Below, in pieces: positions 15,961 through 52,689 of a stretch of DNA of 64,000 nt. Positions within the stretch are counted from its first letter, which is position 1, and the number at the start of each line of letters is the position of its first letter. Source of the DNA: Rhodospirillales bacterium (lineage in GTDB: Bacteria; Pseudomonadota; Alphaproteobacteria; Bin95); assembly GCA_038143065.1 (NCBI GenBank), contig JAYQLI010000050.1, forward strand, positions 2,386-66,385, written 5' to 3'. The position numbers and the translations under genes are program-made. The notes below the pieces were generated by a model that did not search any database, was not told the origin of the DNA, and saw only the letters and a list, made by a program, of their open reading frames with translations.

Positions 15961-16130
15961 TCAATTATTTGTGCTGTGACTGGCAAAGCTCCGTAGCACG
16001 TCAAAATGAGCAGCAGTGTTTCGCATTTTTATTTTCTACAATTGTATTGTTGGAAGGATCGAATGCGAACATGACAGAGAGTGATAGTTATACGAAGAAA
16101 CCACTATTTTGTACGAAGCGGGGCTTGCGC

Positions 16131-16250: not shown

Positions 16251-17413
16251 TTGATTTTGGCTGGAAGTTTGATCATTCGTCTTGTCGCGCAGAGTTTTCA
16301 GCGGACGCAAAGCGTTTGAGGGTTTGGTTATGCGATTGCGAGGGTTTGCGGTTGGGAGGGTTATTTTGTTTGCGGCCTTGATGGTATTGCCTGATCGTCG
16401 CCATCGCCAGTTGGGCGTGGGTTTTGGTGACGCCAAAGGCGTGCGCGGTGCAAGCCAAAGAGATGCAGCCCAATGGGCAGCCGAAGCATTGCTCACCCGA
16501 AACCGCGCCGGCGTTTGGAATCAGCTTGTTGAAGCGCTTTTCCGAGGCCCGCAGCGACGATTGCGCGCCGCCTTCCTCATGATCCCGTCGCGGTGTTTGT
16601 CACGCAAACTGGCGCGGTTGGCCTTGCTTGCATAGGCCTTGTCCGCCAGCACGCGCTGTGCTTTCGCGCCTTCGATCATGGTTTCAAATTGGGGGCTCTC
16701 GGCCTGGTTGGCAGGGGTGGTGTGGACCTTATCGACAAATCCTTCCTCATCCGTGCGGGCAAAGGCCTTGTAGCCGAGTGTGGATTTGGCCTCTTTTACC
16801 CAACGCGCATCCGGATCGGCGCTGTAATACATCTGCGGATCATCCGGGGCTTCGCCTTCGGCCCGATCTTCGGGCGCGTCGATATGGGTGCGGGGCCGGG
16901 CAGCGCTTTCCACCAAAGTCGCGTCGATGATCGCGGCCTCGGCCTCCTTGAGCTTAAGCCCATGCGCCTCGATCTGACGGCAAACCTCAGCCAGAAGATC
17001 GTCGTAAACACCACCTTTCACCAAGGCGTTGCGAAAGCGACAATGGGTCGTCTCATCCGGTACGGGAGCGTGCAGATTGAGCCCGCAAAAGATCATGAAA
17101 TCCAGCCGAACCTTCAGCGCCCGCTCCAGCTTGGGGTCGCTCAGACCGTGCCATTGTCCAATCAGCAGGCACTTGAACAGGACCAGTGGATCATAACCTT
17201 GGGGGCCGACACCGGAACGTCCAAGACCGCGTTTGAGAATGGGCGAAAACGACGACCAATCCATCAGCGCATCAATCTTGGCCAAGGCATCATCGACCCC
17301 AATCCGATCCACCGCTTCACGCAAAAATAGGTCCATGAAAACATCCTCGAAAAACTGCGAAAACCATACAAGCTCCAGACAGTTCAGGGAATCCCGTCGT
17401 TACGCAGAGGTCT
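16232..17413 (-). mobile_element. IS5-family insertion sequence, copy A (transposase frameshifted near its C-terminus)
   Basis: The 271-aa ORF 16521-17336 (FKCLLIGQWHGLSDPKLERAL, RFRN, DATLVESAARP, ADKAYASKANR) has its C-terminal FGVTKTHAQLAMA in another frame. Imperfect terminal inverted repeats AGACGTCTGCATAACG (16232) and AGACCTCTGCGTAACG (reverse complement at 17413) match 14/16. Confidence 0.8.
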
Positions 17414-17662
17414 TCATGCTTTTTCCGACGCTCGAAAAAGCCGACAGAGTGTCTGGTGAAATCGGGTCTCCGATGGTGATCTTGACCGGCTTTTTCTGTG
17501 CGCCTGCGGAATTCATTCAGCAAAAGCGCGACTCGCAGATTATAATGGATATGGCTGCTACTGATGAATTTTTGACCCTGCCAGCCCATTTACAATTTGA
17601 ATATGTACTTCTTATTTTTTATCCATAGACAGCAAACTCAACCTTTTTTGAACGGACTAGTC

Positions 17663-18880
17663 TTATTCCGTTTGAATGTACTATTTTTCCATTAGAGATT
17701 GTTTGCAGCAACTACATGGGGGCCTTCTTCTAACCAATTTAGCAACAACAAATCCCCTCTCTTTCCAATTTCAATAATTCCCCTATCGTTTATTCTCATT
17801 GCAGCTGCTGATCCTCCGGATATCAAACTCAGAGACGTTCAAGGGGTTCCTCGTCGCTCTCGATGAAGCTTGTGAATTGCTCCAAGTAATGCTGGGTAGT
17901 AATAGTCTGATGCCAGCACGTCGCATAAACCGTCCTCGACCATATCACGCACTCACCGAGTTCAGTATGACTGCCCCCTCTAAGTACATTGGGTGCTCCA
18001 AACACCGTAATATCATTTTCATTTTTAGCATGCTGAGTGACCTCTGCAGTCATTGGGAATTCGGTAGTTTTGGACCCAAGCTTACGGAAGAAATCTCTGG
18101 TTTCAATTTGCGTATCATCATGACTGAGCAGAGGTATGTTTCTAAGGTTTGACAATTTTAGCAAGCTCTTTTATTTTGTTTTGGAACTTCGGGTTTTTCT
18201 CTCCCAAATTTTCCCCAACTTTTCTAGATAATCTTTCTCGCTCATACCGGACCTCTTAACCTTTGAGCCAATTCTGTCGGTCAATCTTGGATCTTTCAAA
18301 TTAGCTGCTTCAAAGTCGAGCGAATGTTCAAATGGTCTTTGCTGCAGTGTAGTGTTGAATGGACGCATAGGTAATTGAGGTGTGGTCGTTGAAAGCCAGT
18401 GCTGAGAGTAAAGTATTCAAAAACGATTTCTCAATAAATTCAATTGCCTCAAATGCGAAGGTTTCCCACCTTATTTGGATTCTGTTTTCGACTTGACAAA
18501 TAATTGGAAAATCTGTCTATGAAAGATATAAGTTTTTGAGAGCTATCAATTGACCGTAGACCGTCTTCCCAGCTGAATGTAATCGCATGATAACCAGTGG
18601 TGATACCATTTGTTGCAAGTTGTTTATCTGTCTCTTTAATTGCTATTTCCAGAGGTATTTTTACACCAGGTCTTGCAGCATAATTTGTCTTTCGAATGAG
18701 TCGCCATGAACGTCAATCAAGAGGGCGTCAGAAGAAAACCTTTCCCATGATTGTAATATCAGCTCTAAAGTTATCACCGATTCCAGCAATAAGCCCATTT
18801 TCAATTAACACGCATGTTTCAACCGTACCGGTTGGTAGAAGAACATTAGCGCCCTGAATAAGAATTGATTGAGTATTCAT
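17663..18880 (-). pseudogene. phnM: Alpha-D-ribose 1-methylphosphonate 5-triphosphate diphosphatase PhnM (low-GC version), frameshifted
   Basis: SHDDTQIETRDFF..TTEFPMTAEV...VFGAPNVLRGGSH (17829-18164); N-terminal MNTQSILIQGANVLLP...; C-terminal IGKRGDLLLL in other frames. Confidence 0.75.
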
Positions 18881-18899
18881 TTTTAATCCACATACTTTC

Positions 18900-19745
18900 T
18901 TATTGATAATTGAACTGAATTACCGAGAAATAATTTTTTGCCTGGCGTAATTGCTGATTTGCTCGATCCCTAAGACAAGTGAAAATCATTCCAATTATAA
19001 CCATCGCCCGGTCATATGAGAAAAAATTGAATAAGCTTTGTAATTGTAAGCCGATGCCTCCGGCCCCGACAATTCCGAGAATTACAGAAGACCTAATCGC
19101 TTTTTCAAATGCAAATAGCGAAGTTGCAATAAGACCTAGCATGGCTGCAGGGATGACAGCTGAAAAAGTTGCATCTATTTTGGTGGCTCCACAACACTCC
19201 AAAGCTTCTGCAGGACTTTTATCAACCTCTTCCATTTCTTCAGCAAAAAATCGCCCACAGAACCCTATTGTGTCCACCATAATAGCGAGTGTACCAGCAA
19301 AAGACCCAAGACCAACCACTACCCACAAATATTATAGCCCAGACTAGGTCAGGTACAGTTCTGAAAAATGCAATTAACCCTTTAGAAAAAATTCCTATGG
19401 GTCTGAGATAAGGAGAGGTGAACAATAAATTTTTAGAGGCCAGCAATGCCAGAACAAATCCAAATATAACGCCCAGTACAGTTCCAGCAAAAGCCATCTG
19501 AATTGTCTCTATGCAAAGCATCCAAATATCTAAAAAATGCATCCCAGGTAATTCGATTGCTCTGAGAAGGGCGGAAATGCTCTTTTAAGAAAATCCATTA
19601 GGTATTCTGGGCTTTCTATCAACTTAGAAACAGAAAACCCAGACCCAGAGAATGACCAGGCTGAAAATAATGAGAATACTATTATTATTAACAAATAAAA
19701 ATGTAATTTGGAGGGAAGGCGGGCTGGTGCGTCATCCATATTCAC
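18900..19745 (-). pseudogene. phnE: Phosphonate ABC transporter permease PhnE, at least 3 frameshifts
   Basis: LAIMVDTIGFCGRFFAEEMEEVDKSPAEALECCGATK, SSVILGIVGAGGIGLQL in fragments 18900-19328, 19240-19542 and 19530-19745; a 2-bp deletion relative to copy B destroys the C-terminus. Confidence 0.75.
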
Positions 19746-19785
19746 TTATGAGATCCTTTTGATTTTAGCATATTTGTTTTTTCGT

Positions 19786-20493
19786 CTAAGCTAATTTTTC
19801 CATTTTCAGCGCAATGGTTCCATCGGCATAATCCAAAACCTGGTCAGTATTGTGAGAGGTAAATAAGAGTGTAATATTTTGTTCTTTACACAATTTAAAA
19901 AACAGATCCATGACCTGTTGGCCTGCTACAGGATCGAGACTTGCAGCAGGCTCATCCACGATAATGATTTCTGGGTTTTGCATGAGGGCTCGAGACAATT
20001 GCCACTCTGCTGCGATTGACCTCCTGACAGTGAGTCAGCTCTTTTAGAGCTAAGCTCTCCAACCCCACCATCTTTAAGCAATCTACAGCTTTTGATCTAA
20101 TCGCACCTGATGCGGTTACATGTGTCCATCTAGTGATAGCCGAGAGCGGAAGCATAGAACTAGTATTGGCTTCACCAATGCCTCCATGAATAACATTTGA
20201 AAGCACAGACAAACGTGGAACTAGGTTGTGCTTTTGGAACACGACGCCAACTTTGGATCTTAATTTCCTAAGTGCAGATTGTGATAGATTATTCACTCTA
20301 TTTTCAAATATATCGACTGAGCCACTATCTGGTTTTGTCAAAAGAGGATGCATTTTATTAAAGTTGATTTGCCCGCGCCATTGGAGCCAATAATGGATAT
20401 GGCTTCGCCTTTTGATACCTCGAAGTTCAACCCGTTGAGTACATTCTTATCGTTGTAAGACTTGTGGAGATTAGATACTGTTAAAGTTTTCAT
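19786..20493 (-). pseudogene. phnC: Phosphonate ABC transporter ATP-binding protein PhnC, frameshifted
   Basis: MKTLTVSNLHKSYNDKNVLNGLNFEV (start at 20493), VGVVFQKHNLVPRLSVLSNV, IIIVDEPAASLDP in different frames. Confidence 0.75.
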
Positions 20494-20506
20494 GCCAAAA
20501 CCTAGC

Positions 20507-20536
20507 GCAGTCCCAGGTGTGACAATCTGGGACTGC
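20507..20536 (-). promoter_or_regulatory. Perfect 10-bp stem hairpin in the phnD-phnC intercistronic gap
   Basis: GCAGTCCCAG-gtgtgacaat-CTGGGACTGC, between the phnD stop (20551) and the phnC start (20493); typical position for an mRNA-stabilising hairpin after a binding-protein gene. Confidence 0.4.
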
Positions 20537-20550
20537 TATATGATATTTTA

Positions 20551-21449
20551 TCAATCTAAAGTGAACTCAGGCATGCCGACTGCAACATACATTTCTCTAA
20601 CCACATCGTAGTCTCGAGTCTACTACGGGGACTAGCCTAGTCCCCTTGTATTTGGAATGGGCAGAAGAACCGTCATTAGCATCGACACCTCTGAAAGTGC
20701 CTCCAATAACATTGTTTCATTTTCTACAATTGCATTTTTGATTGTGTCATATTCTTGACCTTTTGATATGCCCACCTGCCATAATCATATCCATGGGTAG
20801 ATCACCTGAACGAAGCAAGACCTTGTAATCACCATTTCCTGTAGGTTCTTTGCTCCTATCATTTTTTATCCAACTTCTGACATTCGTGGCCATGGCGTCT
20901 GTATCACCGCGCACCATTGCAGGGTGTTGTAAGGATTTACTTGTAAAAACTGCTTCAATATCAGTAAGAGGATCGATGCCATAATCCTTAAGTAACTTCA
21001 TTGGACAGAAGTGATAAAGTAGACCCCTGTTTGAAAGAAATCTTCTTTCCTTTTAGATCAGATGCCTTTGTGTAACCGTCCGCTGTTTTTACCACTATGC
21101 CACAATAATAATCAGGTCGTGCTATCCCGATCATTGCTTCGCCGTTTGTGAGCTTGTTTATAGCAACATACTCGGCAGGTCCTGTGAAGGCTAAGTCGAC
21201 TTTGCCAGCTCGCATCGCTTCCGCTGCTCCGGTATGACTGGCGACTTGTATCAATTTCATCTCTGCGTTCAGTATTGATCCCAGCGCTTCTGCCAATGGA
21301 CCCCATTCAGAAATCATTTCTTCCATAGATTCAGCATCAGTCACCGTCATCGTGTAGGTCTTGCTATGTGACCCAGCTAATACAACGTTGGTAGAAGCTA
21401 ATATAAATGTTGCAATTATGGCCGATAATTGGCGCTTAAGATTTGTCAT
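20551..21449 (-). pseudogene. phnD: Phosphonate ABC transporter substrate-binding protein PhnD, frameshifted
   Basis: MTNLKRQLSAIIATFILAS (signal peptide), AMRAGKVDLAFTGPAEYV, GIARPDYYCGIVV, C-terminal VVDSDYDVVREMYVAVGMPEFTLD in shifted frames. Confidence 0.75.
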
Positions 21450-21499
21450 TTTTGATTTGCTCCATGTAAATAACAATACAGGGTGGAAATCATAAAATT

Positions 21500-21517
21500 A
21501 TGACAGCTCAATGACGG
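21500..21517 (-). promoter_or_regulatory. Pho box (PhoB-binding site) upstream of phnD
   Basis: The minus strand reads CCGTCAT-TGAG-CTGTCAT (7-4-7 direct repeat; consensus CTGTCAT-N4-CTGTCAT), followed by TATGAT, about 50 nt upstream of the phnD ATG. Confidence 0.5.
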
Positions 21518-21706
21518 CAGTATTAAATTTTGGTAAAAAGATTGTTAAATTTGTATTGCAAATTGTGAAAGAAATGTGAACCGATCATGCCAGCGTTAGC
21601 ATACTCGTTACTGATGCCCTTTGCAGCATACGTATTTGTGGTTCGTTGTGAGTAGAATATAAGAGCCAGATCAAAAGACTTTCTGAAACGGCGCTATTGG
21701 CGGCTC

Positions 21707-22356
21707 TGTCAGAATAAACCACCTTGCCCTAAAGTGCTGTGCAAATTAGCGTCTATGCCATGCCTAACCCTGGCGTGCCCCCATTGGGTGATCCGGTTTG
21801 AATGTAAGTGTATTGTCGGCCTTTGGTCCATCGGAACGATGCTATCCGATGCAGGCGGACGATAGCCCAATGAACTGTGTGGCCTGACGGTGTTGTAATG
21901 AATGCGCCATTTCTCGATTAGGATTTGGGCCTCCTTTAAGCCGTAGAACAGTTCGCCATTGAGCAGCTCGTCGCGGAACCGAGCGTTGAAGCTTTCACAG
22001 TATCCATTTTCCCAGGGTGATCCAGGTTCGATATAGGCGGTTTTGGCGCCGACAGCGGCGATCCAGTCCCGCACCTTCTGTGCAATGAACTCAGGGCCGT
22101 TATCTGACCTGATGTATTCTGGTGGCCCACGCAGTATGAACAGGTCCGTCAAAGCGTCCAGCACATCGGTTGAGTTGAGCTTGCGATCGACGCGGATCAT
22201 AAGTGCCTCCCGTTTGTATTCATCGATGATGTTCAGTGTCCGATAGGCCCGCCCGTCAGCCGTGCGATCTTGGACGAAGTCATAGGACCAGACATGGTTC
22301 GCGCGTTCAGGCTTGAGGCGCACGCACGATCCATCGTTCAGCCAGAGCCGTGATTT
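21707..22356 (-). mobile_element. IS3-family element remnant (3' two-thirds of orfB plus terminal ...CA end), copy A
   Basis: HVWSYDFV, LNIIDEYKREAL, IRSDNGPEF, PGSPWENGYCESFNARFRDELL, YNTVRPHSSLGYRPPA (DDE integrase core); no orfA; the element end is TGTCAGAATAAACC at 21707. Confidence 0.8.
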
Positions 22357-22382
22357 CTGTTAATTTGGATGATAACTGCTGA

Positions 22383-23261
22383 CTATGGCTTGTACTTGTC
22401 TTCAAATTCATAACCATACTCAAGCCCGAGATCCGCATTCGTTGAAAGTTCATAGGTTTTCTGACGTAAATAATCCATTAAAGCCCTTGTATCTTTGGCG
22501 TATGGAGCAAGTTCTTGGAAGGTCATAGGCTCTCCGACTGCAACCTTGACTTTACTATCCACGCGAGATCTAAACTCTTTGATCATTAAACCCATGCGCA
22601 GCGTGTAATGCAAGTGACTGGCAAGTTGGAACAGTCGGCTTGTATGGCCGTCAAAGTAAATCGGAACTACGGAAGCGTTCGATTTGATGATCAGGCGCGC
22701 AGTGAAGGCTCTCCAATTAGGATCCAAGGGCTGAGAAAATGGCTTCGCTGCAGTTGAGACGGTACCGCCTGGAAAGATGCCTATGCATCCACCATTTTTC
22801 AGATAATCCAACGCAGTTTTCCGCGTTTGAAGATTTATTTCTAAGGCCTCTTTGTTGGCATCAAAAGAAATTGGTAAAATTACTCGATTAAGGTCTTCAG
22901 ATTTTTTGAAGACTTTATGGGCTAATATCCGAAAATCTGGACGTGTTTCATCCAAAATACGACCCAACATCAATCCATCTAAAATACCATAGGGATGGTT
23001 TGAAATAACAATTAACGGGCCTTCTTTGGGAATGGTCGAAAGCGAACCAAGCAGTACATCAAGCTCCAGACCATATCGTTCAACAATAACATTCCAAAAG
23101 GAATAACCTGCCTTAATTTCATCTTGATATCCTCTGGCCCGCTTAAGCAGCCCAATGCGACCTGTCATATTCTCCATAAGCTTAATGATAGTTCGCCCGC
23201 CTTTTGACTGGGCCGAATGTGCATAACTAATTTCTTTTACGTCTTTAGCATTCTCTAACAT
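22383..23261 (-). CDS. PlsC-like lysophospholipid acyltransferase (uninterrupted, 292 aa)
   Basis: HX4D motif in VISNHPYGILDGLML and block III IGIFPGGTVS; overlaps the upstream acyltransferase gene by 7 bp. Confidence 0.75.
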   Translation of the reverse strand: MLENAKDVKEISYAHSAQSKGGRTIIKLMENMTGRIGLLKRARGYQDEIKAGYSFWNVIVERYGLELDVLLGSLSTIPKEGPLIVISNHPYGILDGLMLGRILDETRPDFRILAHKVFKKSEDLNRVILPISFDANKEALEINLQTRKTALDYLKNGGCIGIFPGGTVSTAAKPFSQPLDPNWRAFTARLIIKSNASVVPIYFDGHTSRLFQLASHLHYTLRMGLMIKEFRSRVDSKVKVAVGEPMTFQELAPYAKDTRALMDYLRQKTYELSTNADLGLEYGYEFEDKYKP

Positions 23262-24148
23262 GTTTTTATGCCTCGAATTAATTTATCGCTTTGCAAAATA
23301 TCTAACCAATGCTGCGGCACATTGCGTTTCTGAGTATTTTCTGCCTGCTTATCCAGAGAAATCACGATTTCTTTCAACATATTGGTAGCAATTTTTGGAT
23401 CCCGACTTAGCGACTGCGGGCAAACTGACGGACCAATATTGACGTCAAAACGAAAGCGCCTTTTGTTCAAAGTCTCTTTAAACAGCGTAATATCGCGCAA
23501 GGTCGGATGAATCATGTCAAATAAATAAAAGAGATAAGAGTTTCGTGCAGCTATATGGACTGGGATAAGCGGACAATTGTATTTTTGTGCCACTGTTACA
23601 GCAGACGTCATCCAGTTTCGTTCAACCAATTTAAAGCCTTTGCGCTTCGCAAGTCGCCCAGATGGAAATATCACACCCAATTTTTCATTTTGAATCGCAG
23701 TTTTTATGAAGCGCAGAGTGGCTTGTGTGCTTGATTTTCTGCGTTTTTCTTTGCGCCATTCTACTGGCGCAATATGTTCTTCTAGTTGTGGGAAGATACG
23801 TAAATTGTCATTATTTGCAAAATAATACAAATCTCGCCGCTTAGTGCTGAGTACTTTGTATAAAATTATGGCGTCTGCGATGCCGGTTGGATGATTGGCA
23901 ACGATTAACGCCGATCCAGTTTCTGGAATATTCTGTAAACCAGCGATATTTACTTGGCGCGCAATTTCAGTACTGAGTTTGTTTAGCACATCCGTACCCG
24001 ATAGGTGCTCCAGATTTTTAGCCTCAGTAACTGTATTATTGTAATCAAGACAGAATTTTTGAAATGTATCTAACGCAGCCGTTAAAGGCGATTGTGACGA
24101 AAGCCATGGCGCTCGCTCATGTATCAGCCTATCTATAATGAGATCCAT
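23255..24148 (-). CDS. PlsC-like acyltransferase (uninterrupted, 297 aa)
   Basis: HX4D motif in LIVANHPTGIADAIIL and GVIFPSGRLA block; first gene of a two-gene operon. Confidence 0.75.
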   Translation of the reverse strand: MDLIIDRLIHERAPWLSSQSPLTAALDTFQKFCLDYNNTVTEAKNLEHLSGTDVLNKLSTEIARQVNIAGLQNIPETGSALIVANHPTGIADAIILYKVLSTKRRDLYYFANNDNLRIFPQLEEHIAPVEWRKEKRRKSSTQATLRFIKTAIQNEKLGVIFPSGRLAKRKGFKLVERNWMTSAVTVAQKYNCPLIPVHIAARNSYLFYLFDMIHPTLRDITLFKETLNKRRFRFDVNIGPSVCPQSLSRDPKIATNMLKEIVISLDKQAENTQKRNVPQHWLDILQSDKLIRGIKTC

Positions 24149-25104
24149 GCGATTTTACGAATGCCTTGCTACTTAAAATCATCGGAACTAACGCAACAGT
24201 TGCTTATGTCAGAGCTTACAATGCTGAAATTAAAAAGTTGAAAATTAAACAAGTATTTGCATAACCAAGCCATCTTAAATCCCTCATGTTACCCTGTTAG
24301 TGTAGGCGTGTTTTGTAACAATTTCTTATCAAGCAGAAAAAAATGAAAAATAGTTTAGACCTTATATGAGTTACCTCACGATGCCACCCGAGATCCCACC
24401 TTCATGATATGTACCCACACCTTCAAAACCTTTTACAAATGAACATCAGTTTTAAACAATAATTGTAGCACATCTTTGTCATAAAATCATTTTTGAGTAT
24501 ATAGAGAATTTACTTGACCATAAACTGAAGACTAAATTAATCGGAGCAAGTGTTAAGTTAGTAGTTCAAATCGGTGGCGTATCTGCCGCACGTTCGAAGA
24601 ATTCCAGAAGAATTAAAACAAAATAAATAGCGCAGTGGAATTTTTATAGATGTTTACTTTGAAACTTAGCCGCTCAATAGAAGTAAACTGGCAGTTTAAT
24701 GCCGCTAACCGGTCGCTCAAACTCCGCAAGGCAACGCGTAAGGGCTCTGAAAGTATTCCCTAAAATCTGTACTACTGACTTTGGTTTTTTATTCAGCCCA
24801 AAAACGTTTTGAGTTCTATTTCAAGGCGCCCTTTAAGGCAAGTGCCGCATAAATCGATCAAAGGTACGCCAAGAAATATAGGCATCAATTACAAGCGTCG
24901 ACGCTCATCATTTTGCCAAGCGCTATTTATTGAACCAGTAGATTTATGCTATGCTATCAACTGATCTGAATTCTGTTCCTATGATAGCAATTAATATATT
25001 CGAAAGCACTTAATCTATTGCAGCAAAACTTTCATCAAGGATATCTCAGGTTAAATTCATTCATTTACAGGCGCAAGAGGATCAGTATGCAAACCAATGC
25101 AAAT

Positions 25105-25345
25105 CTATCCAGGCAGCCCGTGGGAATGTGGAGGGATTAGAGAAACGATGCGGGACACTGTTGTCCCGACATATGATACTGGCTGACGTCGAACGGGACC
25201 CTGCGAAAAGAACTCCTCAACGCAGAATGAGTTCCTCACCACCGCGTCAAGCCCAGGTCGCTGTCAATCTTTGGCTCAGGCAATACAACCAGATCAGACC
25301 TCATCACGCTATCTAAACATGCGCCCACCCGTCCCAGAAACCTTA
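25105..25345 (+). mobile_element. Short 3' remnant of an IS3-family orfB (present in copy A only)
   Basis: ...GTLRKELLNAE... and ...LWLRQYNQIRPHHA... in shifted frames; higher GC than the flanks; copy B has about 170 bp of unrelated AT-rich sequence here. Confidence 0.45.
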
Positions 25346-25361
25346 TTAGGTCGCTCAAATG

Positions 25362-25496
25362 CTATGGACGAATATTAGGGGCTAGACGCTTAAGCACGGT
25401 AAGCAGTCGTTCTTCCATTCGAGTGATGGCAGCGAGGGTAGCTTCTGACAATTTGTCGATCTTATCCTCCATGCGTGTAAGGCGGTCTTCGCTCAT
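25362..25496 (-). CDS. Hypothetical 44-aa coiled-coil-like protein
   Basis: AGGAAG 8 nt upstream of the ATG; MSEDRLTRMEDKIDKLSEATLAAITRMEERLLTVLKRLAPNIRP has heptad-like spacing; the copy B version is frameshifted. Confidence 0.35.
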   Translation of the reverse strand: MSEDRLTRMEDKIDKLSEATLAAITRMEERLLTVLKRLAPNIRP

Positions 25497-25566
25497 AATC
25501 AATGCTTCCTGATTCTTTCGAAAATCGTGTGAATTGTTAAGGTTTGATGACTTTTTCCACAGTTTT

Positions 25567-25802
25567 TGTGGATAAAAATGTGAGTAAGATAAGAAAGTTG
25601 GGGATAAGTCAGCCACCTTGTCAAAATGCCGCACTTTGGGCTTTGTGGATAGCAGAATCTCGTGTACTCTTAAATTAATCTAGTCTGGGGGGTAACGAAA
25701 TTTCAGGCTTAAAACTGGCAACGGATTTAAGGCTAAAACGGATTTACCACTGTCGGATTACAGATGTTGGAGAGGGTTATGATCTTCGGATTATTATCCA
25801 CA
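25567..25802. promoter_or_regulatory. Cluster of four DnaA-box-like 9-mers
   Basis: TGTGGATAA (25567-25575, perfect reverse complement of TTATCCACA), TGGGGATAA (25599-25607, 8/9), TGTGGATAG (25644-25652, 8/9), TTATCCACA (25794-25802, perfect); next to about 1 kb of AT-rich non-coding DNA. Confidence 0.45.
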
Positions 25803-26220
25803 AAAGCATCGGCGGTTAAATTGTGAAAACAAACTCTTCGGAGATTGCGGAAACAAATTAAACGCAGGAGGCGTTGGTTCGCTAACGCTGAAGGTAACTG
25901 GTGAGTTAGATTACAGATGCTGGGAAGGTTCTGATCTTCGGATAAGAAAACGGAAAGGCATCGGCGTGATAGAATTAGTGAGTAATGTCTTCGGATTTTA
26001 CGCCCTTTGACTAAAACGCAGGACGCATTGGCTCGCTAATGCTGAAGGTAATCGGCAAGTTAGACTACAGATGTTGGAAAGGTTTTGATTTTCGGATCAT
26101 CATCATCGAAGGCATCGGCGATTAGGTGGCGGAAGTGTTGTCTTCGGATAATGTGCCCGTAAACTTAGACGCAGGACGCAATGGTTCGCCCATGCTGAAG
26201 GTGGCTGACAGATGGATTAG
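25756..26220 (+). repeat. Three tandem units of about 154 bp (25756-25908, 25909-26062, 26063-26206, plus a 14-bp partial fourth), candidate structured ncRNA
   Basis: Conserved blocks GAYTACAGATGYTGG, GCATCGGCG, ACGCAGGASGC and GCTGAAGGT. Each unit has three hairpins capped by UUCG (one CUCG). The stems differ between units but stay paired. No ORF of 60 aa or more covers the first two units and most of the third on either strand (26126..26308 enters the end of the array). Confidence 0.7.
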
Positions 26221-26251
26221 AACAAGTGGCCGTTCAACAAGGAGCTTCTCC

Positions 26252-26308
26252 ATGTTGGGCGGTCATTTTGTTTTTGACTTACCCTTTTTGGGCCAGCCAG
26301 CCTTCTGA
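26252..26308 (+). CDS. Possible 18-codon ORF directly after the repeat array
   Basis: AAGGAG 7 nt upstream of the ATG; MLGGHFVFDLPFLGQPAF; its first bases ATGTTGGG mimic the ATGYTGG that opens each repeat unit; broken in copy B by one extra T. Confidence 0.25.
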   Translation: MLGGHFVFDLPFLGQPAF

Positions 26309-26589
26309 AGTTCTCGTTTTCGGAGGATTGAATGTTGGTCAATGGAATAGTCATGACAAACCGATGAAGTGGTCTGTCAGTGTTAAAAGTGATACCCTTT
26401 AAGTTTATAAGGGCGCGACATCGTTTGGATCAAGGTCCCCGTCCTGGCGGGAAGAATGGGTGTGTAAATTGCCTCGCAAGAATTTTCCAAGCTCAGAAAA
26501 TGGGTCAACTTCCTCCTATCACTCCTAAACATCTAAGTTCTGGCCCGCGTTTCATCTTCTAACAAAATCCTAATAAGTGTTTTTGTCAT
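26290..26589 (-). pseudogene. PHP-domain phosphoesterase, N-terminal remnant
   Basis: MTKTLIRILLEDE..., then GNLHTHSSRQDGDLDPNDVARLYKLKGY.F..LTDHF (PHP motif HxH...DG...TDH) in shifted frames; no continuation beyond about 100 codons. Confidence 0.5.
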
Positions 26590-26617
26590 GCTTTTTCTTC
26601 TGTTTTGTAAATTAAAT

Positions 26618-26741
26618 TTCCTGTTCTCGCTAATTTAATTCCTGTTAAATTTGGAAGTAAAATCATCTCTACCCAATAAAATTGGGATTTGAGGATCAAA
26701 TGGAAGCTATTTTTGTTTATTTTCCCGTTATTTTCCCTGTT
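26618..26741. repeat. Four TTCC(C)TGTT / TTCCCGTT short direct repeats, possible integrase arm-type sites
   Basis: TTCCTGTT at 26618 and 26639, TTCCCGTT at 26722, TTCCCTGTT at 26733; 100-230 bp from the 16-bp core at 26847. Confidence 0.3.
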
Positions 26742-26947: not shown

Positions 26948-28229
26948 ATGGACCCCAAGATGCCAAAACTCCCCGCCTATGTCTTTAGACGCCAGAACGG
27001 CTCGTATCGCTATAAAAGAAACGTTCCTAAAAAGCTCAGACCCCTGATTGGAAAGGATACGCTCTATCGGCAACTGGGGGAGAGCTACTCAGAGGCGATG
27101 AAAGTCCTTCCCAAAGTGCACTTGGAAATAGAGCAACTGTTTGCAGTAGAAGAGATGATGCCTGCCAATGAACGAGCCCTGGCGTTTATCAGAGCAGTGC
27201 TGGGCGAGGACGTTGCGGATATGGTCAGCGGGGCAGGTGGTTGAGTATAGCCAAGAGGACTATGCGCTGAATGAGCTGGCCCAAACGATTGCTTGGCAAA
27301 CTGCCACAGGAAGTGGTGAGGCAAATCTACAACGGTAAGCTACAGTCGCCGCCCATGACACTGGATACAGTCTTAAGTGAATATGCAGCCTATAAAGCCG
27401 GGGAAGTGTGAGAGATAAAGATGCCCTTACGTATCAATAGCTGCGCAAAGACCTTAAAAGCAGCCTGGGAGAGCATAAGCTGGAAAAGGGTAGCCTGGCA
27501 GAGATTACCAGAGCAGATGCCAATGCTTTCGGGACCACTTACTGGAGCGAATGAAGCCCAACTCAGTGCTGAGGAATGTGGCCGTTGTAAAGGCAGCCGT
27601 GAACTACGTGATAACAGAACATAGCCTTACCATTCCAAACGTATTCAACGGATTGAAGATAAAAAGGGGCAGGGCGAGCGTCGAGGATAGGCATCCGCTG
27701 ACGGACGAGCATATCGCCATAGCAACCCCTGCTATCAGAATGACCCGCTTGCCTGGGCACTCTTCGTCACCTTGATAGATACAGGTGCAAGGCTGTCGGA
27801 AATCGTAGGGCTAGAAGTCCAAGATGTGGACCTGCAGGAGCGCTCAATAACCATACGCCCCAACAACATTAGAGGTCCTAAGACCAAAGGTCACATAGAA
27901 CACTCCCACTGAGCCACAGGGCAGCAGAGACACTGCAGGAGCGTAGAAAGGCAAAAAGAAGATGGGAGGCTATATTCCCAAATACGCTCGCCCACGTGGC
28001 AATGATGCTGCCTTTGCTATGCTCATGAAGCGCTCAGGAACCATAATCACAGATAAGAAAGCTTACCATGCACTCACTACGCCACCGCATGAAGGACAAG
28101 CTGAGGAATACAGGCTGCCCGGAGGCCATCTCAATGGCCATCCTAGGGCATGGTTCTAACACAGTCGCTGCCAACTATGGCTCAGCTGTTTTAGACGTCA
28201 TGAGAGAGCATATGGAGAAGGTGTGGTAG
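26948..28229 (+). pseudogene. Tyrosine-type site-specific integrase, full length but frameshifted
   Basis: MPKLPAYVFRRQNGSYRYKRNVPKKLRPLIGK (N-terminal domain), LRNVAVVKAAVNYVITEH, LTDEHI, ...GHGSNTVAANYG...MREHMEKVW spread over at least 4 frames. Confidence 0.8.
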
Positions 28230-29049
28230 TTTCAGAATCCGTAAGAAAGTTCAAATTACAAGGTATTCGAACCTTTGCTTATAATTGGGCTGTTTTTTAC
28301 CTTACTAGGCAAAAAATTCAAAGCAAAGCTCTTATTCTGCCAGCCAATATCAGAGTAGAATATCTTATTTGATGAAAACGTCCTTCACAGAGTTTGTTTA
28401 TTAACGGGTAAAGGAATAAGGCCCTGCCCACATAATGACAGATGGGTGTCAGACACAAAATTTCTGAACGCATTTACTATCATATGTTTTTCGAAACTGA
28501 GAATATTAAGAGGCTGAGATATTTGACAAAAATGACGAATCAACGAGTGTACCATGAAAATTCATTTTTTTTGCCAAATTTTTCAGTTAAAAGCTTGGAA
28601 CCCTGAATCGATAGTTCTAAAATCCAACTTTCAGAATGTTTTTTGCAGATAATTCCTGAAAGTGGTTGAAATAACTGCAACATCAAGGGACTTAAATGGG
28701 AGCCCTCATTTTGGATAATTTTAATGAGATCTATGAATTGGATAATTTTACTCTTGCAACCCCACCAATCACTTTATCATTCATCTTTGATCGAGGGCAA
28801 AACGTGAAGTTGAGCCAACTCCAGTGTAAGATGGATACGATTTATGTAGGCAGCACCGACAGAAAAGTTCAAGAAAATGATATTTAAAGTTACCAAACCA
28901 CAGAAAACAGATCGATACCACACCAATCAAACGTTCAATAACACTTTTCCTGGACCATATTTCCATATGAGTGGGATCGGGATAAGTAAGCCGCTTAATT
29001 AAAAATCCGTGAGTTTTATTGAGAACTGTGAACACACATAATCATCATA

Positions 29050-29120
29050 GTACATGGTTCAAACACAGTCGCTGCAAACTGCGATTGAATTGCGTTCGTC
29101 GCTCGTTGAAGCTAGGATCA
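29050..29120 (+). pseudogene. C-terminal scrap of a related integrase
   Basis: CATGGTTCAAACACAGTCGCTGCAAACT matches CATGGTTCTAACACAGTCGCTGCCAACT at 28150-28177 (HGSNTVAAN). Confidence 0.35.
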
Positions 29121-29766
29121 AGTGCGGAGTTAAACATTCTAAGCCAATACAGCCTGCACTTCAAAGAGTTGCATGCGATATAGCGTTTCTGGCAGTGCTT
29201 CGCTTTGGTTCCAAAATCAAGACCAAAGGGCAACAATTAGATCGCCTACCTTGATCACAGGGTCCTAATGCTTTAGGATCGCTTCAACAGCTTTTGATCC
29301 AAATGCATGATACAATCCTCCTTTAGTCCGATCCATTTTCACTCTCTATTTTGCTAATTTGGTCAGTTTTTGATGCTATCAAATCAGTCAAAAATGGTGA
29401 TATCAGATTAAAATCAGGTGAACGATGAAACTTCTATAGCAAATGTCAAAGCTCAAATTGTGAAGTGCTATTAAAAGCTTCCCAGGGCGCAATTATTATT
29501 TGGCTAATCCAAACAAGTTACCAGAGTGCCCCAGAGTGGCACGAGGAAGACACTTTAAAGACTAACCATAAGAGGGGTATCAAAAAAGGAAGTGCTTAAA
29601 GAGAGCATCAGAGAGCAACCTTAGTGACATAGAAAAAATATCTCAAAGCTATGGAAATAAAGACAGCCCTAATAGCAGACGATAAAGAATAAATTGTATT
29701 GTAGTTTGTTCTAAGCTGACAGGGTATTGGGAACACCCAAACCCTTATGTATTATATATTATTATA

Positions 29767-29811
29767 TTACGACTTACATATTACGTCTTACGAATTACCC
29801 TTACAGCTTAT
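29767..29811. repeat. Heptad-periodic TTACNNN repeat (6-7 units)
   Basis: TTAC at 29767, 29774, 29781, 29788, 29795 and 29801, and TTAT at 29808. Confidence 0.5.
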
Positions 29812-29818
29812 CCTTTAA

Positions 29819-29848
29819 CCTTAGGAGCCTTTCCTGAGGTGTTTTTTT
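29819..29848 (+). terminator. Rho-independent-terminator-like hairpin
   Basis: CCTTAGG-agccttt-CCTGAGG (7 bp, one G-U pair) followed by TGTTTTTTT. Confidence 0.4.
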
Positions 29849-29881
29849 ATTTTTGTATTAAGAACAGAAAGATATTTTAGA

Positions 29882-30052
29882 ATGACCAAGTATATTGATC
29901 CAAAGCTCTCCCAAGAGACCCTAGAAACCTACCAAGGCTATAGCCTTCAGGTGTTTACCTCAGGGCGCATTAAGCTGAGCTTTCATAAGAGCCATAAAGA
30001 CAGAGTAGAGTACTATGCAGTAAAGCCTAAGCGCTCAAGAGGAAGCCTATAA
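29882..30052 (+). CDS. Hypothetical 56-aa ORF
   Basis: MTKYIDPKLSQETLETYQGYSLQVFTSGRIKLSFHKSHKDRVEYYAVKPKRSRGSL; no recognisable family; downstream frames contain further ORF debris. Confidence 0.2.
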   Translation: MTKYIDPKLSQETLETYQGYSLQVFTSGRIKLSFHKSHKDRVEYYAVKPKRSRGSL

Positions 30053-30791
30053 GCGTCAGTATAATCGTAGTGCTTTAACTGCCCGAGCATTACCAGTTAA
30101 TAGAAGAGCTACTGGCTGAACACCCCAACAGCCTCATCTACAGGGTGCATCTTAAAGGGGATATCAATGCCACTGCTGATAATGCCATGTGCTTGTACCC
30201 ACAGATAAAAAGGACCTCCTTCATCTGGTACTAGGTAGCCTAACCCACCAATGGCAACTACCAACTCAAGTCATAAACGCCTTACTAACAGCAAGTGGTC
30301 CTAAAGAAAGGGCGCACCGCTATCTTCAATGAGTACATGGCCAGCTATCAGCATGACTGGGTGGATATAATCTTCTGAGCAGGACTACAGAGATGGGTAT
30401 CCGAGAGCCTAAAGCTGCGAGCTCCTATTTGCTAAGATGATCATCAAGATAATGATTTTTACCTTTTAACTGAAAAAATCACTATTATTCGCATGGGCTT
30501 GAGTGTCATAACGTTCAAATTCAAAATTGGAGAGCAAAGCGACCTTCGAAGCTGAAGAGATATATGTCTGCTATATGGACAATCCAGTTGTTAACGGCTG
30601 GAGGTTTAAAATGGGCCGGTGTGTCGAATTTGTCTACCCATCTCTGTTCTTTTCCTAATGTGTAGTTGACTTGTGATCACGCCGACGACTTTCTTTTTTA
30701 TTGTAAAAGTCTTTGTTAAAAAAGAAAACACCGACGTAAGACTAGTTTGTTAAAAAAGAACGCATCTACTTGCAAAACCTAGGAAGAAACC

Positions 30792-33345: not shown

Positions 33346-33634
33346 TGCCAAGTGCCCCGTAAACCTTGATGTATTACCTAAATTAGCCTCCCCCTGTTCT
33401 TTGGTGGAGGTTTTTTAAGCTTTGCGTCGGATAACCATTATGTCCCATAGTAAGACGAATAAGATATTAGTTGCATTAGATGGACCCATTCTATGTCAGA
33501 TGACAAAGAAATCGCCAATTAAGCGATTTGGATGAACAACTTCTAAATGAAGCAATAGTAAGGCAAGACACAGGTCGCTTGACACATCACTGTCATACGC
33601 CTGTGTCACTGGGAGGGCAGGAAAAGGGGAATTC

Positions 33635-34318
33635 ATGTCGTACTCTCGATTTGCGATTTACTATGTGCCGCCTCGCACGGGCCCTTGGCTGATTTTGGAG
33701 CGTCTTGGCTCGGATGGGATGTAGGCAGGCGTGAGGCGGTGCTCAACCGCCTATGCCCGAGTTGTATGACATCATCGATGACACCGCGCAATTCACGGGC
33801 TGCACGGGACATTGAAGCCGCCCTTTTCGCCTGAAAGACAATCGGACGATGGCCACGCTGGAACAGGCGACAGCAGACCTGGCGAGCGCCGCTGGCACCT
33901 GCGGTTTGCGATCCATTAGATTTGACGACACTGGGTGGGTTTTTGGCCTTGACGCCACGGGCGAGTCGGCGCTGCGCTTCAACGAGTGGCTGCGGCGTGC
34001 GTTCGTGACCTCGACGGGTTCCGTGCCCCTGCCAGCGCCGCAGAACGGGCTCCGTCGCCGCGCCGTAGGGCTCAGCGTCTGTCAAGACGCCTTGCTTGTG
34101 CAATGGGGTTACCTCGTGGCGTAATGGCAGAGTTCAAATTTCACCTGACCTCGTCGGGCCGCTTGCTCAAAAGAAGACGTCGACCATTGGTCCCAGACGG
34201 TCCTGGCGCGTGCTGCCGGATTTGAGTGCACCTTTCGTCGTGGACCAGATTGCCCTTGTGCGCTGAACGGGATGACGGTCGGTTCGAGTTGATCCAACGC
34301 TACACGCTCGCCGGATGA
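33635..34318 (+). pseudogene. DUF1045 phosphonate-metabolism protein, copy B, heavily frameshifted
   Basis: MSYSRFAIYYVPP..., FKFHLTSSG, ...RFELIQRYTLAG; diverged from copy A at the nucleotide level. Confidence 0.7.
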
Positions 34319-34866
34319 AGCAGCGCTGCACCACGAGCAATAGTCTGTGACAATGGGCCATCATTGGCTAGGTGGATCCACCTTGAGACCTTCAGGCAAG
34401 GGCTTATTGGCTTCTTCAAGGCTCTTGGAAATTTCTTCTGTTGTCTCTCGACCCGTGCGGACTAGACGCCGGGCCAAGAAGTCCCTGGCTCTCGCGGTGA
34501 TGTTGAGAACCAAAAATCGGTGGAGAGATATTTGACGCATGCGCGAGAGCTTTGCGCGAAAGTTCACGAGGCAATCAGGTTCCCTTGCCAAGCTGGTATT
34601 TCACGGTAATCGGGATGCCGTAATGTAGCCCGTGTGCACTCCAATGGATAGCAAATGCTCCGTCTTGAACGAGAGTCTCAAATTGCTCAACAGACACTGC
34701 GTCATACTCCTCGCCGACTAGTTCAGGCGCGCGGGTGATGACGCGGCGCACCAAATGCAGATAGGGCATCACATCGTGTAGAGCCCGCCATGACACTGTC
34801 CTTGCCAACCCCCGAAGGACCAACGACTGCGATTAGGTCGCCCTTGGAGTTCAAGGCGAGTGTCAT
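34300..34866 (-). pseudogene. phnN: PhnN, copy B, frameshifted
   Basis: MTLALNSKGDLIAVVGPSGVGKDSV, HLVRRVITRAPELVGEEYDAVSVEQF...HGLHYGIP in fragments. Confidence 0.7.
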
Positions 34867-35550
34867 GCAACCATTCCAGGCGGTGAAGCGGCTAATATCA
34901 ATTTCGCGATCACATACGCGGCTTCGTGCGGCCTCATCATGGAAAATGCCGATGATCGCCGCACCACGCGCTTTGGCGTCTTCGATTAGGGACGAGCACC
35001 GACATCTCGGTTGGCCGCATCAAGACTTGCGGTCGGTTCATCCAGCAGTATCGCAGGGAAGTTATAGGGTAAAGCCACGGGCGATATTGACCGCGCTGTT
35101 GCTCGCCGCCCGAGAAAGTTGTTGGTGAAAGGACCACAACCGTTCTGGGATGTTCAATTGGTGCAAAAGAGCCGATGCGCGGCGCTGCGCATCGCACTGC
35201 CGAAACGCCTAATAGGCGCAAAGGCTCTGCCACCACATCCAGGGTCGGACCCTAGGTACGACGCGTAGGAATTGGCTGACATAGCCGGCACATCGCGGCG
35301 CAATGTGATTATTTCGCGGGCTCGGCTTGCACAAGGTCCAGATCGTCAATAAGAATTTGACCAGATTGGTCGAGTAGTTGCCGTATATCATCCGCATAAG
35401 CGTTGATTTACCGGCACCAGATGCCCCCGTAAGCGCGACACATATCGCCGGGCGGCCAACGGCAAAGGAAACATCATTGATGACCTCAATTACCGCACTG
35501 CCTTGATTGTGCAGCGTAAAGGCTTTGGAAACGTGCTTAAGTTCAATCAT
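34863..35550 (-). pseudogene. phnL: PhnL, copy B, frameshifted
   Basis: MIELKHVSKAFTLHNQGSAVIEVINDVSF, ALTGASGAGKSTLMRMIYGNY, FSGGEQQR in fragments. Confidence 0.7.
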
Positions 35551-35554
35551 GACC

Positions 35555-50731: not shown

Positions 50732-52162
50732 GCGGATTTTACGAATGCCTTGCTACTTAAAATCATCGGAACTAACGCAACAGTTGCTTATGTCAGAGCT
50801 TACAATGCTGAAATTAAAAAGTTGAAAATTAAACAAGTATTTGCATAACCAAGCCATCTTAAATCCCTCATGTTACCCTGTTAGTGTAGGCGTGTTTTGT
50901 AACAATTTCTTATCAAGAAAAAAATGAAAAATAGTTTAGACCTTATATGAGTTACCTCATGATGCCACCCGAGATCCCACCTTGATGATATGTACCCACA
51001 CCTTTAAAACCTTTTACAAATGAACATCAGTTTTAAACAATAATTGTAGCACATCTTTGTCATAAAATCATTTTTTGAATATATAGAGTAATTTACTTGA
51101 CCATAAACTGAAGACTAAATTAATCGGAGCAAGTGTTAGTTAGTAGTTCAAATCGGTGGCGTATCTGCCGCACCATTCCAGAAGCAATTAAAACAAAAAT
51201 AATAGCGCAGTGGAATTTTTATAGATGTTTACTTTGGACTTAGCCGCTCAATAGGAAGTAAACTGGCAGTTTAATGAACCGGTCGCTCAAACTCCGCAAG
51301 GCAACGCGTAAGGGCTCCTGAAAGTATTCCCTAAAATCTGTACTACTGACTTTGGTTTTTTATTCGCTCCAAAAATGTTTTGAGTTCTATTTCAAGGCGC
51401 CCTTTAAGGCAAGTGCCGTATAAATCGATCAAAGGTACGCCAAGAAATATAGGCATCAATTACAATCGGACGCTGATCATTTTGCCAAGTGCCGCTATTT
51501 ATTGAACCAGGATTTATGCTATGCTATCAAGATCTGGAATTCGTTCCTATCGAAAGCACTTAATCTATTGCAGCAAACTTCTCATCAAGGATATCTCAGG
51601 TTAAATTCCATTCATTTACAGGCGCAAAATTTATGCAAATTATGCAGATCATTTGATGCTGATTGTTGTGCAAAGTTACGTCAATTTAAATTAGATGAGT
51701 TTTTACAAACTTGTCACAAGTTTGTAATTTTATAGTCATAAATCATTGCTATTCGCTATCTAAAGAACAGTTATGGTCGCTCAAATGCTATTAAATATTA
51801 CAAGCCACGGTAAGCAGTCGTTCTTCCATTCGAGTGATGGCGAGGGTAGCTTCTGACGATTTGTTGAGCTAATTCGACATGCGAGTGAGTTTGGTCTTCA
51901 CTCATAACTAATGCTGCCTGATCTTGAAAATCGTGTGATATGTTAAGTTTTGATGACTTTTTCCACAGTTTTTGTGGATAAAAATGTGAGTAAGATAAAA
52001 AAGTTGGGGATAAGTCAGCCACCTTATCAAAATGCCGCACTTTGAGCTTTGTAGATGGCGAATCTCGTGTAACATCATATTTAATCTAGTCTGGGGGGTA
52101 ACGAAATTTCAGGCTTAAAAACTGGCAACAGATTTAAGGCTAAAACGGATTTACCACTGTCG

Positions 52163-52626
52163 GATTACAGATGTTGGAGAGGGTCATGATCGTCGGATTA
52201 TTATCCACAAAAGCATCGGCGGTTAAATTGTGAAAGCAAACTTTTCGGAGATTGCGGAAACAAATTAAACGCAGGAGGCGGTAGTTCGCTAGCGCTGAAG
52301 GTAACTGGTGAGTTAGATTACAGATGCTGGGAAGTTTCTGATCTTCGGATAAGAAAACGGAAAGGCATCGGCGTGATAGAAAAAGTGAGTAACGTCTTCG
52401 GATTTTACACTCTTGACTAAAACGCAGGAAGCATTGGCTCGCTAATGCTGAAGGTAATCGGCAAGTTAGACTACAGATGTTGGAAAGGTTTTGATCTTCG
52501 GATCATCATCATCGAAGGCATCGGCGATTAAGTGGCGGAAGTATTATCTTCTGATAATGTGCCCGTAAACTTAGACGCAGGACGCAATGGTTCGCCCATG
52601 CTGAAGGTGGCTGACAGATGGATTAG
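52163..52626 (+). repeat. Second copy of the three-unit UUCG-hairpin tandem array
   Basis: Same three units and conserved blocks as 25756-26220, with scattered substitutions. Confidence 0.7.
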
Positions 52627-52689
52627 AACAAGTGGCCGTTCAACAAGGAGCTTCTCCATGTTGGGCGGTCATTTTGTTTTTTGACTTAC

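Follow-up and report, generated by a model that had tools for sequence, protein, structure and literature searches.

A candidate new class of structured RNA with three homologous modules, encoded beside DnaA-box-like motifs in marine Paracoccaceae

The RNA gene, its units and its upstream region

We examined a window of 64,000 nucleotides (nt) from a Rhodospirillales bacterium (assembly GCA_038143065.1, contig JAYQLI010000050.1, positions 2,386 to 66,385 of the forward strand) and identified two copies of what appears to be a free-standing gene for a large noncoding RNA (ncRNA), which we rate as a previously undescribed class. Copy A (25679..26275, plus strand) extends over ~597 nt from UCUAGUCUGGGGGG to the T-run of a terminator, as delimited by the limits of homology and by a full-length alignment (A2); copy B occupies 52085..52682 (plus). 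When metagenome loci, at least 20 of them from other genomic contexts, were compared with the window by BLAST, similarity of 85-97% was confined to ~25640/25679..26276/26305, and the flanks were unrelated. Conservation sets in abruptly at TCTAGTCTGGGGGG (25679) and extends as far as the T-run of the terminator. These sharp limits indicate a transcript of ~597 nt, a length that includes the terminator; the folded core measures ~545 nt.

The body of copy A consists of three head-to-tail units (array A, 25755-26206, plus strand), in which GAYTACAGATGYTGG recurs at 25756, 25909 and 26063, giving spacings of 153 and 154 nt. A covariance model of the unit (R1) places unit 1 at 25755..25899 (153.3 bits), with hairpins P1, P2 and P3 around a conserved junction, unit 2 at 25908..26053 (155.6 bits) and unit 3 at 26062..26206 (148.5 bits), all on the plus strand. 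The model finds exactly six units in the whole window and no further match; the other three, at 52162-52306, 52315-52459 and 52468-52612, form array B (52162-52612, plus). All units have in common the blocks GAYTACAGATGYTGG, GCATCGGCG, ACGCAGGASGC and GCTGAAGGT. In a MAFFT alignment of the six window units these blocks are invariant and the sequence between them is variable, with a mean column identity of 79%. Self-BLAST aligns 25756-26049 (units 1 and 2) with 25909-26202 (units 2 and 3) at 73% identity (E = 1.8e-21), a similarity far beyond chance. A Tandem Repeats Finder scan did not report the array because the unit copies are too divergent.

An earlier note, written from the letters of this DNA without database searches, had described a three-unit repeat with shared blocks and a second such array. 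The first is borne out by reading of the sequence, by the MAFFT alignment and by self-BLAST, and the second was recovered at 52162-52612 by self-BLAST and the unit model. The feature extends beyond the coordinates given there, as the conserved transcript reaches from ~25679 to ~26275 and includes a 75-nt leader and a terminator. The note had also stated that no open reading frame (ORF) of at least 60 amino acids covers units 1 and 2, and the ORF list agrees. Unit 3 is touched only by ORFs at 26126-26308 (plus, 60 amino acids) and 26122-26253 (minus, 43 amino acids). No ORF is conserved between units, and we found no homologue lying inside a conserved protein reading frame; the note had said that such a placement would refute its reading.

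Several elements surround the units. The 5'-terminal strand UCUAGUCU (25679..25686, plus) pairs with GGAUUAGA at 26214-26221, just 5' of the terminator, to form helix 1 of the predicted structure, and is followed by a leader hairpin (25691..25748, plus) capped by a GCAA tetraloop of the GNRA type. The leader sequence CUGGCAACAGAUUUAAGGCUAAAAC is kept even in a divergent homologue with a single unit, described below. An outer closing stem, with CUGUCGG..UAC as its 5' strand (25750..25761, plus) and 26201-26211 (GUG.GCUGACAG) as its partner, encloses all three units. The intrinsic terminator (26225..26275, plus) has a stem of ~19 bp followed by UUUUGUUUUU. Each RNA gene has one promoter-like region and one terminator, and no internal promoter or terminator was found within the array. 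Copies A and B differ at 23 positions. All seven substitutions that fall in paired columns retain pairing, as exchanges of G.U for A-U or of C-G for U.G. In two loci from different clades (L146 and L165), a further small hairpin with a UUCG-like loop lies ~40-60 nt 3' of the terminator (GUAGGC-UUUCGG-GCUUAC in L146, a GUAAGCC..GGCCUAA variant in L165), and the changes between the two may be compensatory.

Conservation in the upstream alignment suggests a promoter at 25645..25670 (plus), with a -10 element TACTCT at 25665-25670 (TAATCT in one clade) and a weak -35 element TTTGTR 16-17 nt further upstream; a consensus promoter scan did not call it. The putative spacer holds a GANTC site (CcrM-type) in most clades. 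A sigma-54 promoter in the leader (CTGGCAAC...TTAAGGC) was considered and rejected, the spacing being off by 3 nt. As is usual for stand-alone ncRNA genes, the locus combines a terminator and defined limits of conservation with the lack of an ORF, and conservation points to the promoter.

Some 70-130 nt upstream of the RNA 5' end lies a cluster of DnaA-box-like 9-mers (25553..25607 in copy A and 51959-52013 in copy B), with CTGTGGAAA on the minus strand followed by TGTGGATAA, TGTGAGTAA and TGGGGATAA, and box spacings of 12 and 21 nt. Boxes with no more than one mismatch number 30 in the window, where 12.3 would be expected, and the cluster accounts for four of them within 100 nt. In every neighbourhood with upstream sequence the cluster forms the 5' edge of the minimal shared block; its members across neighbourhoods are TGTGGATAA, TGGGGATAA, and TGTGGGTAA or TGTGAGTAA, together with an inverted partial box (L196, L180, L136, L135 and L219 are among the loci that conserve it). 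Exact matches to TGTGGATAA number four in the window, two in the clusters and two inside unit 1, one in each array. The latter are perfect DnaA boxes in P1 (25794-25802 and 52201-52209, minus strand; TTATCCACA on the plus strand). Other clades show TTATCCGCA or TTATCAGCA at this position, so the P1 box is probably fortuitous.

Fold, strand and comparison with known RNAs

Structure was predicted with RNAalifold from 20 distinct full-length sequences (alignment A2) and from 41 distinct units (alignment A3). The full-length prediction comprises the 5'-end helix, the GCAA leader hairpin, the closing stem around the three units, P1, P2 and P3 in each unit, and a helix between the linkers that flank unit 2 (helix 10). 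Of 3637 cells in its 182 pairs, 99.4% are standard pairs, compared with 34-46% when the partners are shifted by 1-3 columns, and nine pairs show double changes, which is how covariation was counted here, in a manner that is not tree-aware. The unit alignment has 31 pairs, of which 97.4% are paired (25-46% in the slid controls) and 13 show double changes, a number matched by none of 500 shuffles. The terminator stem (helix 22) contributes one compensatory change from G-C to A-U. The hairpins quoted in the earlier note, which it named H1 to H3, are all present, and so are its five C(UUCG)G loops in array A (H1 and H2 of units 1 and 2, and H2 of unit 3). The two pair exchanges that it had pointed out, from G-C to A-U in H3 between units 1 and 2 and from A-U to C-G in H1, are real. 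The support for covariation grew as homologues were added, both in the RNAalifold prediction and in the pair counts over the 20 full-length sequences and 41 units.

The fold is strongly strand-specific. Consensus energies are -164 kcal/mol on the plus strand against -84 on the minus strand for the full-length alignment, and -20.1 against -0.3 kcal/mol for the unit alignment, the minus strand being essentially without a consensus fold. The single-sequence fold reaches -180 kcal/mol on the plus strand (z = -2.8) and -130 kcal/mol on the minus strand, and 32 of the 182 pairs in the window copy are G.U. The compensatory changes, the strand asymmetry and the G.U pairs thus indicate a structured RNA read from the plus strand. 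These data also bear on the idea that the repeats act as DNA, for instance as iteron-like protein-binding sites, or are a decayed coding repeat. Tandem direct repeats do adjoin DnaA boxes here. However, compensatory changes preserve the helices, the G.U pairs and the nearly unfolded minus-strand unit consensus betray an RNA, and the units have no conserved ORF in common; covariation and strand asymmetry together effectively exclude this reading. Plasmid iterons (17-22 bp) were rejected separately, given units of 153 nt, the compensatory changes, the strand asymmetry and the absence of a nearby rep gene.

The invariant bases lie in the junction strands, in the adjoining helix bases and in a purine-rich internal loop of P1. 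Four junction strands, GAYYAC-A-GAUG, CAUC-G-GCG, CGC-AGGA-GC and GC-NGAAG-GUR, hold nearly all of them; towards their tips, which end in UUCG, CUCG or similar loops, the helices are free to vary. This pattern is what would be expected of a defined three-dimensional core, unlike seeds or GGA motifs displayed in loops. Three local motifs were considered and set aside. A kink-turn in the P1 internal loop (a 3-nt bulge with tandem G.A/A.G, tried by eye in both orientations) misfits across the three units; an alternative hairpin of unit 1 resembling a CsrA site (AACGC-AGGAG-GCGUU) is not kept in units 2 and 3; and matches to 16S rRNA motifs (GGAUUAGA, AAGGUAAC) are just 8 nt long and were taken as coincidence.

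The earlier note had proposed that the RNA was undescribed, and none of our searches contradicts it. The 4227 covariance models of Rfam 15 gave no match at gathering scores anywhere in the window. At E <= 10 on 25300-26700 only chance-level matches appeared, far below gathering (snoZ247, a HOXA11-AS region, and ctRNA_pGA1 on the terminator). ARAGORN predicted no tRNA or tmRNA gene in the window, and we found no description of this RNA in the literature, including searches with literal sequence strings.

Large structured bacterial RNAs without an assigned function are rare, the main examples being OLE, ROOL, GOLLD and raiA, each of which opened new biology. In its size and ornateness the RNA described here most resembles OLE, ROOL and GOLLD, having ~600 nt, many helices, conserved bases in junctions and internal loops, and a stand-alone gene. 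It differs from them in being built of three homologous modules; none of the three is known to have an internal repeat of this kind. It also differs in occurring in Alphaproteobacteria, in carrying UUCG caps and not interaction loops, and in not having been found in phage genomes, and it has no match to the covariance models of these families. Genes for ROOL and GOLLD are carried by prophages and phages (PMC12286853), and some copies of our RNA likewise adjoin prophage DNA.

A second comparison is with the sponge RNAs CsrB, RsmZ and CrcZ, which also repeat modules within one transcript, end in an intrinsic terminator, carry purine motifs with GGA (here AGGA and GAAGG) and follow a multivalent decoy logic of the kind that we propose below. 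In those RNAs the GGA or CA motifs sit in hairpin loops of modules of ~20-40 nt, whereas here GGA lies in a junction strand of four-helix-junction modules of ~145 nt. Membership in the CsrB/RsmZ type was therefore rejected: the hairpin loops are UUCG, CUCG or GCAA, without GGA, and each unit has a single GGA, in the strand that links P2 to P3.

Relatives, origin of the three-unit form and possible function

A pattern scan of metagenome contigs returned 82 loci, of which nhmmer confirmed ~35 as true homologues, all from marine or coastal assemblies. Twenty distinct full-length versions were aligned, window copies included, and a 21st, unaligned, is present in the isolate Rhodobacteraceae bacterium IMCC15231 (WTLK01000004.1), in an unannotated 0.9-kb gap that separates an MFS_3 gene from a PanB-like gene. 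Beyond the window there are 19 further distinct full-length versions, 18 from marine metagenomes and the one from IMCC15231, and every complete metagenome locus has exactly three units. Carriers of the gene are uncultured marine Paracoccaceae and this isolate, and its gene neighbourhoods, unrelated to one another, number at least five. BLASTN of the locus against 72,556 plasmids and 50,697 phages gave no match, and two pattern scans of IMG/VR gave chance matches only. A pattern run on isolate genomes (CATCGGCGN{35,65}CGCAGGAN{10,30}GCTGAAGG) was too G+C-rich and produced at least 119 one-off chance matches in high-GC genomes, with no real homologue detected by nhmmer among the matches listed. 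Orthologues of flanking genes (the MFS and LysR loci) in Planktomarina and other Paracoccaceae were found with the RNA missing at the corresponding place.

We identified a single-unit form in another Paracoccaceae lineage (locus L176, MDTB01194963.1, with a 3' fragment in L213). It has the same leader, closing stem, GGAUUAGA segment and terminator around one unit, and adjoins genes for 2-aminoethylphosphonate catabolism. Its closing stem, CUGUCAG/CUGAUGG, occupies the same place as that of the triple form and is paired at all 7 positions through one-sided changes. The P2 and P3 helices are re-written, and hence supply the most divergent covariation of the data set. Between clades, orthologous units share ~90% identity, as against ~65-70% for paralogous units; the identity of the single unit to any of these is 59-66%. 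The existence of a single-module relative and these identities indicate that the module is the ancestral functional unit and that the triple form is an old internal triplication, one that predates the divergence of the three clades sampled. The stem joining units 1 and 3 is homologous to the closing stem of the single unit, which argues for one particle and not three independent RNAs.

The same evidence can be set against the possibility that the transcript is a precursor, cut by RNases in the linkers into three independent small RNAs (sRNAs) of ~150 nt. Known precedents are CcsR1-4 of Rhodobacter and NrsZ of Pseudomonas, which also string tandem homologous structured units behind one promoter; CcsR, like this RNA, occurs in Rhodobacterales. 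The units of CcsR and NrsZ are 50-90 nt long and are separated by processing, and their loops display conserved seeds (CCUCCUCCC in CcsR). Here, too, the three-hairpin fold is autonomous and recurs in every unit, unit 2 has a 6-bp closing helix to itself (GAUUAC/GUAAUC, set on the longer linker-linker helix 10), and a relative with one unit exists. However, promoters and terminators are missing from within the array, and the linkers, which form helix 10 together, rank among its best-conserved parts. Unit 1 is joined through its 5' side to the 3' side of unit 3, so that common closing stems enclose the units. The conserved bases are buried in junctions, unlike exposed seeds, and the hairpin loops are UUCG. 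We therefore regard processing into separate sRNAs as unlikely, if the foremost of the alternatives. The earlier note had left the choice between an sRNA array and one long multi-domain RNA undecided; the single promoter-like region and terminator, the paired ends and the closing stem between units 1 and 3 favour the latter.

Our preferred interpretation, to which we give a probability of roughly 60%, is that the locus is a free-standing plus-strand ncRNA gene of triplicated modules whose product acts in trans as a multivalent scaffold or decoy. A weak promoter of the sigma-70 type would place the transcription start ~2-10 nt upstream of UCUAGUCU and may be controlled by the three or four conserved DnaA boxes at about -60 to -130; in that case the RNA level should follow DnaA and replication status. 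Because conservation is concentrated in the junctions and the P1 internal loop, with interchangeable tips under inert UUCG caps, we suggest that the module is a three-dimensional binding site. The mature RNA would offer three equivalent sites to one partner, most likely a protein, and the triplication would have raised its valency. We speculate further that the four-helix-junction module, triplicated in one chain, might form a pseudo-threefold particle with three binding sites, in which control by high-affinity DnaA boxes couples chromosome-replication status to sequestration or assembly of the partner, and this in some of the most abundant marine heterotrophs; in this full form the proposal is quite unlikely.

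Several points weigh against the scaffold or decoy interpretation. The sequences are only moderately diverse, coming from three clades at 80-97% identity and one distant relative, so many of the compensatory changes trace to few evolutionary events. Unit ends could pair in alternative registers, within one unit or between units, and the outermost 8-bp helix (UCUAGUCU/GGAUUAGA), pairable in 20 of 20 sequences, is invariant and hence without covariation support. Motifs suggest DnaA binding, and the conservation pattern and repetition are what suggest a scaffold or decoy; we infer the ends of the RNA, its abundance and any processing. No neighbouring gene is conserved across the at least five neighbourhoods, and nothing points to a partner.

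The conservation of the DnaA-box cluster suggests that an RNA is connected with the control of replication, for which we know of no described precedent. As forms with one module and with three have both survived, nature offers an experiment on the growth of large RNAs by internal duplication. The hosts belong to the widespread and abundant coastal and marine roseobacter group (Paracoccaceae), and the presence of the gene in the cultured isolate IMCC15231 makes these ideas directly testable.

Genomic setting

In this analysis the host of the window copies was placed in the Paracoccaceae, as an uncultured marine member. The genes beside the RNA differ from place to place. They include an MFS transporter with a PanB-like gene, a Gfo/Idh/MocA oxidoreductase, DUF1330 and glyoxalase genes, IS3 with phage-like genes and, in the window, acyltransferases and an integrase. 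Different contexts are homologous only from the DnaA boxes through the promoter and RNA to the terminator, and they diverge ~35 nt past it. A tandem riboswitch or other cis-regulatory leader of a downstream gene could be proposed from the aptamer-like, junction-centred conservation and from the terminator behind the array. However, the downstream gene differs in every one of at least five unrelated contexts and is often on the opposite strand, nothing is encoded for 670 nt 3' of the RNA in the window, and no antiterminator alternative was seen; the lack of a conserved downstream gene effectively excludes this explanation. A type III toxin-antitoxin system of the ToxI kind, with repeats of ~34-36 nt and a toxin gene, was likewise rejected, as the units are 153-154 nt long and the downstream genes are unconserved.

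Phage remnants adjoin some copies. Next to the RNA promoter in the window lies a truncated divergent ORF (25362..25496, minus; MSEDRLTRMEDK..., 44 amino acids), which has an intact homologue of 88 amino acids at the same position in L136 (2575-2841, minus in RNA orientation) and in L165. The 88-residue protein, with a coiled coil and a transmembrane segment, shares 77% identity with gp45 of the Roseobacter phages CRP-738 and CRP-212, the gene for which directly precedes the terminase genes (terminase small subunit) in roseophages. The divergent ORF, or its first ~25 nt, precedes the DnaA boxes in the window clade and in one other clade, and we take the 44-residue ORF to be a prophage remnant, a neighbour of the RNA and no part of it. 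A covariance-model search of three roseophage loci that carry this neighbour gene did not find the RNA. On the other side, 670 nt 3' of the RNA, is a tyrosine integrase with a DUF6538 N-terminus and several frameshifts (26948..28232, plus); a fragment of it recurs at 55164-55916, and an intact orthologue of 430 amino acids is present in metagenome contig L202. Among deposited phages the integrase has no close relative, the best matches being ~27-31% identical. An integrase and a prophage remnant beside the RNA indicate that its gene lies in recombination-prone DNA, as tRNA genes do.

Like the integration hot spots at tRNA and tmRNA genes, the locus combines a structured-RNA gene with an integrase, prophage remnants, variable DNA and breakpoints past the 3' end; unlike them, it has no tRNA or tmRNA by ARAGORN and no att-type direct repeat, leaving its use as an attachment site a candidate only. 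A broader form of this idea is that the RNA is a cis-acting part of the replication or integration of a mobile element, with the DnaA cluster as origin and the transcript as primer (as for ColE1 RNA II), or as an attachment site. Three or four strong DnaA boxes stand directly upstream in all contexts, the integrase and the prophage remnant flank the RNA in the window clade, contexts diverge at shared breakpoints, and many metagenome contigs end inside the gene. However, the RNA stops at a strong terminator, genes for a replication initiator, partition or primase are missing beside it, and in IMCC15231 no mobile-element genes adjoin it. A search of the window with exact 14-mers found no att-like repeat of the RNA flank outside the duplication of copies A and B, and no direct repeat of at least 14 nt of its 3' flank elsewhere. 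The plasmid, phage and IMG/VR collections also failed to yield the RNA. We consider a cis role of this kind very unlikely.

The phage remnants bear equally on the possibility of an RNA-only machine, in which the three modules pack into a pseudo-threefold particle that might oligomerise further and serve a structural, encapsulating or catalytic purpose, as proposed for ROOL, GOLLD and OLE. The large size and the ornate fold, the lack of a conserved protein gene nearby, a leader GNRA loop that could dock on a helix, and phage remnants beside some copies, as for the prophage-encoded ROOL and GOLLD (PMC12286853), would all suit such a role. However, UUCG caps rarely make tertiary or intermolecular contacts, we saw no pseudoknots or loop-loop complementarities, and related phages do not have the RNA. 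Moreover, around the gene in IMCC15231 no phage gene was called over ~2.5 kb on the downstream side or 6 kb on the upstream side, the stretch read there ending in a fragment of an IS240-family transposase. We judge an RNA-only machine decidedly unlikely. In order of falling likelihood, the alternatives to a trans-acting scaffold or decoy are thus processed sRNAs, an RNA-only particle or ribozyme, a mobile-element cis role, a riboswitch and DNA-level repeats.

A conspicuously high proportion of metagenome contigs, those with a single unit included, stop inside or at the edge of the RNA gene (L122, L123, L128, L144, L152, L171, L176, L177, L181, L185, L195, L206, L212 and L213), as would be expected if genomes carried more than one copy or if the locus were mosaic at strain level. 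In L180 we observed, upstream of the RNA, a DUF5681-like phage protein and, at 3785-4132 (minus in RNA orientation), an ORF fragment resembling a reverse transcriptase (..FDVRSYYSSMDYQIILDLL..), for which Pfam and PHROGs gave no match. Phosphonate genes recur near RNA loci (L176, L212-L218, L120/L121 and L150). They comprise 2-aminoethylphosphonate genes (phnW, phnA-like and phnY-like) with a LysR regulator, as well as phnGHI and a phosphonate ABC transporter; their recurrence may just mirror how common such islands are in marine Paracoccaceae.

The two copies of the RNA belong to a segmental duplication (7104-27593 versus 33623-55916) with a period of ~26.4-26.6 kb. Identity is 97.7% between 10578-25076 and 37188-51627 and 74% between 7104-10580 and 33623-37132. 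The second copy of the whole RNA region, at 51802-53293, is 92.6% identical to the first, so that the RNA region is more diverged than the adjoining 14.5-kb segment. The closest metagenome locus is L146 for copy A (96.9%) and L202 for copy B (98.5%), which suggests recombination with different donors. In copy B a 1.9-kb segment (53293-55164), missing from copy A, separates the RNA flank from the integrase fragment and encodes two ABC-transporter permeases (53344-54147 and 54144-55040, minus). Transposase genes or fragments (DDE_Tnp_1/DUF772, rve) occur at 16521-17336, 21709-22323 and 25128-25316, and long stretches, such as 28230-30790, have short ORFs only, giving the region the appearance of pseudogene- and IS-rich DNA.

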